From Candidatus Saccharimonadota bacterium (GTDB lineage: Bacteria; Patescibacteriota; Saccharimonadia; CAILAD01; BJGX01), in contig JACPPH010000004.1 of the NCBI GenBank assembly GCA_016191105.1, positions 1,230 through 65,229 of the forward strand: a DNA stretch of 64,000 nucleotides, written 5' to 3'. Shown here in pieces: positions 11,855 to 12,115 of the stretch (within the stretch, counting starts at the first letter, position 1; every line of letters begins with the position of its first letter). The notes under the pieces were generated by a model. It saw only the letters and a list, made by a program, of their open reading frames with translations, made no database searches and was not told the origin of the DNA. A program made the translations under genes and the position numbers.

Positions 11855-11872
11855 TGGCGGAGAGGGTGGGAT
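11855..11872 (-). repeat. 18-nt duplicate of the tRNA-Ser 3' end (tggcggagagggtgggat)
   Basis: Identical to the 3' end of tRNA-Ser(TGA) at 12026-12043, 154 bp away. This is an att-like direct repeat. Confidence 0.65.
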
Positions 11873-12025
11873 AGCGGCTACGCCTTCTTCGCTTGTTCGT
11901 GCTCGAAGTAAACTTCTGCGCCTCAACTTCGCTACGCCGAACCCTCGCAGCTAAAGCTGCTTTCGTTGGCTTCTCACTACTGTCATCAGAAGAAAACATC
12001 CGAGACAAGCTCGAACACTTTCTTC
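11873..12025 (-). other. Conserved tRNA-Ser trailer element, copy 1 (hairpin plus about 85-nt element)
   Basis: About 75% identical to 19197-19345 downstream of tRNA-Ser(CGA). The trailer hairpin shows two compensatory base-pair changes between copies. Confidence 0.6.
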
Positions 12026-12115
12026 TGGCGGAGAGGGTGGGATTCGAACCCACGAGACCGTTGCCGGCCTGACGGTTTTCAAGACCGTTCCCTTCAACCA
12101 CTCGGGCACCTCTCC
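12026..12115 (-). tRNA. tRNA-Ser (anticodon TGA)
   Basis: 90-nt type II tRNA with a long variable arm, T-loop GGTTCGAATCC and CCA encoded. Anticodon loop CTTGAAA. Confidence 0.9.

Follow-up and report, generated by a model that had tools for sequence, protein, structure and literature searches.

A possible RtT-like repeat element with a split T arm behind tRNA-Ser genes of a Candidatus Saccharimonadota bacterium

The DNA analysed here (the window) is a 64,000-nt stretch of contig JACPPH010000004.1 from a Candidatus Saccharimonadota bacterium, and it carries genes for tRNA-Ser(TGA), tRNA-Ser(GCT), tRNA-Arg(GCG) and tRNA-Ser(CGA) (Table 1). Directly 3' of tRNA-Ser(TGA) lies a non-coding cassette of ~170 bases, with a counterpart behind tRNA-Ser(CGA), which may be a new element resembling the tRNA-linked repeats known from Escherichia coli as RtT; the two window copies, W_TGA and W_CGA, are described on the strand of their tRNA, as are all other copies. 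The tRNA-Ser(CGA) and tRNA-Ser(TGA) genes are identical over their 3' 34 nt by alignment. On the minus strand, tRNA-Ser(GCT) is preceded by a strong promoter (TTGGCA, 17-nt spacer, TATAAT; 11 of 12 consensus positions). The valine-tRNA ligase (ValRS) encoded at 8263-10650 gave a 100% match to a protein from a Candidatus Saccharibacteria metagenome-assembled genome (MAG), the next relatives being 72-74% identical.

The original prediction had taken an 18-nt direct repeat at this locus as the sign of integrase-mediated insertion into a tRNA 3' end, deleted down to a remnant. The repeat itself was confirmed: tRNA-Ser(TGA) ends at its 3' side in the 18-mer ATCCCACCCTCTCCGCCA (12026-12043), an exact copy of which stands at 11855-11872(-), and the two copies bracket 153 bp (11873-12025) downstream of the tRNA with a period of 171 bp. 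Exact matches to ATCCCACCCTCTCCGCCA occur at 11855-11872(-), 12026-12043(-) and 19179-19196(+), with one further match at one mismatch (12390-12407(-)), against a chance expectation of 0.03 estimated from shuffles. The copy at 11855-11872 is the sole one outside tRNA genes, and its local alignment score was 18 vs a shuffle maximum of 11. Homology of the 153-bp segment to the trailer of tRNA-Ser(CGA), also claimed previously, was borne out (73.7% over 156 nt, E = 2e-16), but it does not extend to the full 18-mer: after ...GCCGCT only ATCC(-)AC is kept, followed by the trailer's own terminator. Beyond the distal repeat, the predicted terminator is present by direct reading as a hairpin with flanking A and T runs at 11819-11845; a simple terminator scan did not list it.

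Table 1. Positions of the tRNA genes and of the parts of the two window copies of the element (positions in the window; L014 and L017 are copies from other lineages, see text)
Feature	Position	Strand	Basis or remarks
tRNA-Ser(TGA)	12026-12115	-	CCA encoded; ARAGORN; Rfam tRNA model 59.6 bits
W_TGA hairpin 1 (hp1)	11987-12027	-	18-bp hairpin starting with CA of CCA; A-rich 5' arm, U-rich 3' arm, terminator-like; direct reading
W_TGA linker with (C)TGATGA and decayed antisense T-arm piece (GTAGTGAGAAGCCAACGAAA)	11961-11986	-	position; analogy with L014, L017 and E. coli RtT
W_TGA hairpin 2 (hp2), GCAGC-TTTA-GCTGC	11947-11960	-	direct reading
W_TGA sense T-stem 5' half and first four T-loop bases (GAGGG TTCG)	11938-11946	-	CGAGGGTTCG vs tRNA CGTGGGTTCG, 9/10
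W_TGA conserved 65-nt core, GCGTAGCGAAG..CGCAGAAGTTTACTTCGAGCAC..AGCGAAGAAGGCGTAGCCGCT	11873-11937	-	nhmmer E = 4e-25; 81% to W_CGA copy
W_TGA distal 18-mer	11855-11872	-	last 2 T-loop nt, T-stem 3' half, acceptor 3' strand, discriminator base, CCA
Terminator 2, AAAAAGACCC-GAAAGA-GGGTCTTTTTT	11819-11845	-	direct reading; readable on both strands
tRNA-Ser(GCT)	12390-12482	-	ARAGORN and Rfam
tRNA-Arg(GCG)	14464-14540	-	ARAGORN and Rfam
tRNA-Ser(CGA)	19107-19196	+	ARAGORN and Rfam
W_CGA hp1	19195-19235	+	
W_CGA linker with decayed antisense piece	19236-19258	+	
W_CGA hp2	19259-19269	+	
W_CGA decayed sense piece	19270-19276	+	
W_CGA 65-nt core	19277-19341	+	nhmmer E = 3.9e-20
W_CGA ATCC(-)AC remnant of T-stem 3' half inside terminator (CCAC-TGCG-GTGG + six T)	19342-19363	+	direct reading; terminator scan

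Because a T-stem 5' half and TTCG stand directly 5' of the core, the 18-mer can be recognised as the right half of a copied tRNA 3' third, the T loop of which is split by the core. Identity between W_TGA and W_CGA was 83% in the tRNA, 73% in hp1, 44% in the next ~50 nt (from the linker to the sense piece) and 81% in the core. Decay along the segment is uneven on this comparison, the core being as conserved as the tRNA and the neighbouring sequence having decayed. Within hp1, 8 of the 18 pairs differ between the window copies and 7 of these 8 still pair (two changed on both sides, five by switches between G-U and Watson-Crick pairs); four G-T pairs work on the tRNA strand only, and the U tract is poor in both copies. 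The likeness of hp1 to a plain terminator in the relative L006 (18/21, E = 0.47) was too slight to tell a native hp1 from an imported one. Alignment of W_TGA with W_CGA required indels of 1, 1, 1 and 7 nt, and the 153 bp contain no credible open reading frame (ORF); since copies differ by indels, both in this pair and across the core family described below, the segment is non-coding on either strand.

Further copies were sought with a pattern made from the conserved blocks, run against one genome per species and JGI metagenomes, and the matches were checked by a hidden Markov model (HMM) of the core using nhmmer. Besides the window copies (11855-11946, E = 4e-25; 19268-19360, E = 4e-20), the core was found behind tRNA-Trp in two strains of another Saccharibacteria lineage (L010 and L011, E = 1e-24), behind tRNA-Arg(TCG) in one lineage of metagenome contigs, in which the genes alongside have homologues in Saccharimonadales (L017, L018 and L019, E = 4e-22), and behind tRNA-Pro(TGG) on a metagenome contig (L014, E = 2e-19). 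Collectively, the family comprises five tRNA genes of four amino-acid identities (Ser, Trp, Pro, Arg) in four lineages. Pattern matches in L009, L012, L013, L015, L016 and L028-L049 were dismissed as chance, scoring below 25 bits by HMM and lying in unrelated, mostly coding sequence. Copies elsewhere, for which the original prediction had proposed a search, were found behind other tRNAs in other lineages. No further copy was found in the same genome, where Logan contigs L026 and L027, which carry proteins of the two window ends, yielded neither a tRNA nor a core; how far these contigs extend past the window was not measured.

The copies share a common order. The tRNA with its CCA is followed by hp1, the stem of which takes in the CA of CCA, then by a linker, the antisense T-arm piece and hp2; the second half consists of a sense piece (variable-loop end, T-stem 5' half and four T-loop bases), a core of 62-65 nt and the remainder of the tRNA 3' end (last two T-loop bases, T-stem 3' half and acceptor 3' strand). 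The boundary falls in the T loop in every copy, with the core standing between nt 57 and nt 59. Absent in L011, hp2 is kept with a different sequence in W_CGA (TGCG-TAG-CGCA) and in L014 and L017 (TTTTCC/GGAAAA vs TTTTGC/GCAAAA). The distal copy in L011 matches the tRNA 3' end at 16 of 18 positions, with a similar terminator after it.

The tRNA-derived pieces of each copy were compared with tRNAs in local-alignment matrices, in which background scores were 4-8. All three pieces scored best against their own tRNA in L014 (antisense 16, sense 10, post-core 9) and in L017 (antisense 11, sense 10, post-core 12), as did the post-core pieces of L011 (14) and W_TGA (18). The sense piece of L014 copies the unusual TTTG of its tRNA-Pro (T loop TTTGAGT) in place of TTCG. 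Antisense and sense pieces form a 13-bp helix in L017, including three G-U pairs that fit the tRNA strand only, and pair at 13 of 15 positions in L014. These comparisons show that the flanks of the element follow the local tRNA.

Distribution among relatives is sporadic. In L003 and L006 (ValRS 68-70% identical) no element follows tRNA-Ser(TGA), a gene or plain terminator standing directly after it, nor is there one behind tRNA-Ser(CGA), which in L003 likewise has a gene or plain terminator straight after it; the same holds for tRNA-Pro(TGG) in L003 and for tRNA-Arg(TCG) in L022 and L023, where the neighbouring spermidine-synthase fusion is 69% identical. The empty sites on which an insertion reading would rely were found at the tRNA-Ser genes of L003 and L006, albeit in relatives that are distant. 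Within the window the element occurs only at the two tRNA-Ser genes with the exact 18-mer; tRNA-Ser(GCT), with its one mismatch, and tRNA-Arg(GCG) carry no copy. Neither an integrase nor a phage link, both implied by the original prediction, was recovered: no recombinase family was detected in the 30 window ORFs scanned or beside the other copies, no match to the segment was found in 50,697 phage records and 72,556 plasmid records, and four scans of viral contigs gave chance matches only. As a separate observation, an orphan fragment (CACGGGTTCGAATCCCTTCGGGT) was noticed at about 1885-1910(-) of L023, past the terminator of tRNA-Arg(TCG). Its sequence is similar to that of a tRNA-Arg(CCG) from the T arm through the acceptor 3' strand, and its T arm is intact, unlike the split version in the window.

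The closest parallel that we found to this anatomy is RtT (Rfam family RF00391), the 178-bp tyrT repeats of Enterobacterales, which belong to the gene rttR with its tpr ORF and were first described around 1978-1991. Known behind E. coli tyrT since the 1970s, these repeats have so far remained unexplained in origin and function. The rtT RNA is thought to take part in processing of the tyrT transcript and likely has a role in modulating the stringent response, its mode of action being unknown (10.1101/2024.07.17.603846). The original RtT descriptions appear among the references listed in PMC11623569.

Units from E. coli and Providencia served as positive controls for RF00391, the gathering score of which is 45 bits. 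The tyrT-tyrV locus of E. coli K-12 holds four RtT units (133-137 bits). A unit contains GGGGAAGGATGAGAAGCTTCGA, which matches the antisense of the tRNA-Tyr T arm at 19 of 22 positions, then AAGGTTCGA (sense T-stem 5' half and T loop) and a 66-nt GC-rich insert, and it ends in AATCC...ACCA, identical to the tRNA-Tyr 3' end at 19 of 19 positions. BLAST with the E. coli unit led to a relative in Providencia alcalifaciens that is a genuine RtT (RF00391, 97.5 bits) but follows tRNA-Lys(TTT), and all of its pieces match tRNA-Lys: antisense GTGCAGG-TGAGAAGCTGCG, sense CAGGTTCGA and an 18-nt 3' copy, ATCCTGCACGACCCACCA. RtT therefore also combines a constant insert with flanks from the local tRNA.

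The two families have much of their layout in common. Both lie directly 3' of a tRNA, end in the last 18-19 nt of that tRNA including CCA, have their boundary in the T loop, place a sense T-stem 5' half with TTCG(A) directly 5' of a GC-rich insert of ~65 nt, and carry an antisense T-arm piece further upstream, which is clear in L014 and L017 and decayed in the window copies. Flanks are local in both (Tyr in E. coli and Lys in Providencia; Ser, Trp, Pro and Arg here). A shared GUGAGAAGC at the antisense T-loop position, CGAAG..GGCG.AGC near the insert 3' end and a possible TTCG:CGAA pairing are suggestive only. The differences are as follows: the window has single units, whereas those of E. coli are in tandem, three behind tyrV and one between tyrT and tyrV; the present family belongs to the phylum Patescibacteria/candidate phyla radiation (CPR) and has an additional hp1 that pairs with the CCA end; the antisense piece of L014 and L017 pairs with the sense T-stem 5' copy, whereas that of RtT pairs with the 3' copy; and the window insert lacks an arginine-rich ORF.

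A side observation concerns the same Providencia sequence (L051, NZ_OU659131.1), in which three tRNA-Lys-like pseudogenes occur at about 326-400, 421-495 and 626-700. They are intact to the T loop (..GCAGGTTCGA) and continue with CCCGAAGGGCAAAG.., a piece of the RtT insert; one of them is overlapped by a weak YrlA (Y RNA-like) match of 35.9 bits, below the gathering score. Such copies suggest that the T loop of an entire tRNA gene copy can house an insert of the RtT type.

From the anatomy, its recurrence, the local-tRNA flanks, the absence from relatives' orthologous tRNAs and the matching anatomy of the E. coli and Providencia RtT units, we read the locus as one unit of a new RtT-like, tRNA-linked repeat element, with a probability of roughly 0.5. 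An origin by recombination in the T loop and a role of the element as RNA are what we infer beyond these observations. The cassette would arrive at a tRNA gene, or be rebuilt there, by recombination in the near-universal T-arm sequence GGTTCG...ATCC, so that its flanks would be those of the recipient tRNA and the repeat boundary would fall in the T loop. It may then be transcribed together with the tRNA through read-through of hp1, up to the strong terminator beyond; a strong promoter precedes tRNA-Ser(GCT), and canonical terminators follow the element in W_TGA, W_CGA and L011. With the terminal copy of the tRNA 3' end, the trailer RNA would finish in ...GCCA as a tRNA does, and the machinery that matures tRNA 3' ends could trim and protect it.

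Several results weigh against this reading. Independent copies number only five, and a full CCA end is present in just two of them (W_TGA and L011), whereas in W_CGA, L014 and L017 what follows the core is limited to the T-stem 3' half and a portion of the acceptor strand. The antisense piece is not significant by itself in the window copies. No RF00391 match was obtained at E <= 10 in 11450-12600, in the 141 nt of 11850-11990 or in L011, L014 and L017; conversely, the core HMM found nothing in the E. coli locus, and global alignment of insert to insert gave z = 0.3-2.0 relative to shuffles. The closing helix of RtT, formed by the antisense piece and the 3' copy, reaches -20 kcal/mol in E. coli with none of 300 shuffles as good, whereas the equivalent outer helix was not significant in four of the five copies here and only modest in W_TGA (11 of 300 shuffles as good). 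No covariation stands behind any fold of the core (RNAalifold -9.3 kcal/mol). An RtT-style structure is compatible with the core family, with 85% of cells paired vs 43-56% in slid controls, and its pairs hardly vary. Transcription of the core is only inferred, since L014 and L017 have a good terminator in hp1 and the sequence from hp1 to the core showed no promoter.

The most serious rival is a DNA-level remnant of an integrative element, to which we give a real, albeit minor, share of the probability. It holds that an integrase element crossed over in the T loop of tRNA-Ser and was then deleted to its two arms, as in a cis-mobilisable element (CIME); the replacement 3' end and hp1 would have been brought in, the native 3' end and terminator 2 displaced, and the core would consist of recombinase-binding sites, conserved as those of one element family. 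Integrase-mediated insertion into tRNA genes reportedly has a T-loop sublocation (Williams 2002), and the exact 18-nt direct repeat beginning in the T loop, with the tRNA left intact, has the geometry expected of recombination at a tRNA gene. Each repeat copy has its own terminator, as with attL/attR pairs and CIME remnants, in which an intact tRNA with terminator is matched by a displaced copy with a second one. After the distal copy, GGAACTAT resembles the trailers of the window tRNA-Ser(GCT) and of tRNA-Ser(TGA) in L003 (26 nt, 88-92%). The restriction to the two tRNA-Ser genes with identical 18-mers and the sporadic distribution, with absence from relatives, also fit, and the core contains direct repeats (GGCGTAGC twice, AGCGAAG twice) and a dyad (GAAGT-TT-ACTTC) in place of a covarying fold.

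A further point in favour of the remnant is an island integrated in tRNA-Trp of a sister strain. Over 2.5 kb, as far as a point 9 nt inside the tRNA-Trp 3' end, L010 and L011 share 99.3% identity; upstream of this junction (L010 1-912 compared with L011 2471-2547) L010 continues into unrelated AT-rich DNA (GC 35.6%). Thus, tRNA 3' ends do serve as integration sites in this clade. However, the island joins 9 nt from the tRNA 3' end, at another position than the element boundary, and carries no core; as the element is present in both L010 and L011, it is not part of the island. The L010 contig starts inside this foreign DNA and probably shows one end of the integrated island. Its MAG is labelled Ignavibacteriaceae and is probably mis-binned, because outside the island the sequence matches a Saccharibacteria contig at 99.3% identity.

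The anatomy argues against a plain remnant. The T arm of a normal attR is intact, whereas in each of the five copies, as in RtT, 65 nt part TTCG from AT-CCCAC. The T-stem 5' half with TTCG directly 5' of the core is not expected of a simple attR, and neither is an antisense T-arm piece. Random deletion would leave differing remnants, yet size and layout are the same in all copies, with the same core of ~65 nt behind four other tRNA genes, each with flanks from its local tRNA. No integrase was found in or near any copy, in the window among the 30 ORFs scanned, the collections of phages, plasmids and viral contigs gave no match, and the core is as conserved as the tRNA (81% between the window copies) while the sequence adjacent upstream has decayed to 44%. 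The original prediction of a deleted-down scar is therefore weakened, because the 18-mer belongs to an independent conserved feature and tRNA sequence (the T-stem 5' half) is recognisable upstream of it. The scar idea captures the geometry of the repeat and perhaps the mode of arrival through T-loop recombination; it does not account for the split in the T arm or the antisense piece, for a constant size and a conserved core, for recurrence behind different tRNAs or for the parallel with RtT.

Two other explanations are less likely than a DNA-level remnant. A reverse transcriptase might have copied parts of the mature tRNA and switched templates, with the hybrid cDNA recombining into the tRNA gene; entry of such cDNA into tRNA genes has been described for Neurospora mitochondrial retroplasmids. 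With the tRNA itself as template, the local flanks would come about naturally, as would tRNA pieces in both orientations and a 3' piece of 18 nt that includes CCA, and the stretch from position 59 to CCA is what would be reverse-transcribed before a modified A58. We consider this origin improbable. The CCA is encoded in the gene, so its presence in the copy tells nothing of an RNA origin; no reverse transcriptase was seen in the window or the other loci examined, and neither poly-A nor any other signature of retro-insertion was noticed. E. coli, in which RtT has the same boundary (nt 57/58), is not known to carry 1-methyladenosine at position 58 (m1A58). A local accident of no wider significance, in which part of the tRNA gene was duplicated in tandem or a fourth tRNA-Ser gene decayed to a pseudogene, the filler being unrelated, would account for the T-stem 5' half (9/10) upstream of the 18-mer and has a precedent in stray tRNA 3' fragments of these genomes (such as the tRNA-Arg(CCG)-like one in L023), but is highly improbable given that neither ARAGORN nor Rfam called a tRNA at 11855-12025, that no copy has tRNA sequence 5' of the variable loop and that the supposed filler is conserved better than any other part and, by the core HMM, is found again behind four further tRNA genes in other lineages.

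Returning to the reading as an RtT-like element, recurrence of the split-T-arm design, with unrelated sequence, at five tRNA genes of streamlined Saccharibacteria genomes, together with an RtT unit tailored to tRNA-Lys in Providencia, turns a single-species oddity into a comparative problem. What recurs is the design and not the sequence, which points either to a specific route by which tRNA T loops give rise to such units or to a function for which the 3' end of the cognate tRNA has to be mimicked. A short direct repeat of a tRNA 3' end is routinely taken for the scar of a prophage or island, and in some cases it may be something else. A wider proposal, which we regard as doubtful, is that the window element and enterobacterial RtT are two branches, or independent inventions, of one unrecognised class, in which a small non-coding module installs itself in a copy of the tRNA 3' third, at the T loop, is rebuilt with local tRNA sequence and yields a trailer RNA with a borrowed tRNA 3' end. 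If this were true, tRNA-linked repeats would span phyla from CPR to E. coli, as mobile RNA/DNA or as tRNA-mimic regulators, and the trailer RNA would borrow tRNA maturation, CCA repair or recognition by tRNA-binding factors.

Other RNA identities were considered for the trailers and set aside. At gathering and E-value thresholds, Rfam families in the window were limited to tRNAs. The recurring CUGAUGA was reminiscent of a hammerhead or of a box C/D or kink-turn motif, but the stems are misplaced, there was no Rfam match and the motif is missing in L011 and L014. ARAGORN detected no tmRNA, and a tmRNA or peptide tag in the core was rejected, copies differing by single-base indels; signal recognition particle RNA, which is often found beside tRNA-Ser, was likewise rejected, its conserved motifs being absent and Rfam giving no match. 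An IS110-type bridge RNA (antisense to the left half and sense to the right half of its target) and a TnpB guide RNA (3' guide) were set aside because no recombinase or TnpB gene lies nearby and the antisense piece is paired within the element. Small RNAs such as 3'ETS-leuZ of E. coli, which derives from a tRNA 3' external transcribed spacer, resemble the element in being non-coding sequence in a tRNA 3' trailer, bounded by tRNA processing and a terminator; they differ from it in that such spacers repeat neither the T arm nor the 3' end of their tRNA.

Several minor observations were made around the two copies. The trailer of tRNA-Arg(GCG), at 14436-14462(-), opens with a hairpin (ATCTCGA-GCGAAG-TCGAGAGAT), the loop of which contains the GCGAAG motif found twice in the core; no core follows this hairpin. 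The GC-rich stretch that had been pointed out beyond terminator 2 is real (11540-11719, GC 0.58-0.62, above its surroundings), as is the micro-ORF in it (31 codons, 11635-11730(-)). This ORF (MGLLSKKKFKSLDLVAGDMLVTDTSVGSSAH) is free-standing between a TPR-like gene and the tRNA cluster and has a GGAGG ribosome-binding site, a promoter-like site (TTGATT-17-TAGAAT, 11788-11816(-)) and a GC-rich terminator-like hairpin downstream (about 11545-11580); its region gave no Rfam match.

Between tRNA-Ser(GCT) and tRNA-Ser(TGA), 12119-12377(-) holds a small membrane-protein reading frame, in which a 16-codon ATG ORF (12327-12377) appears to run on into a 57-codon ORF (12119-12292) in another frame, suggesting a frameshift. 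The same two tRNA genes are separated by only 33 nt in L006 and by MazG-like and methyltransferase-like genes in L003. Relative to the ValRS gene, this pair and tRNA-Arg(GCG) lie on the opposite strand to that in L003 and L006. The two element-bearing tRNA-Ser genes constitute inverted repeats of ~250 bp, 7 kb apart, which could mediate inversion, and a Logan contig of the same organism (L001) breaks at tRNA-Ser genes at both of its ends.

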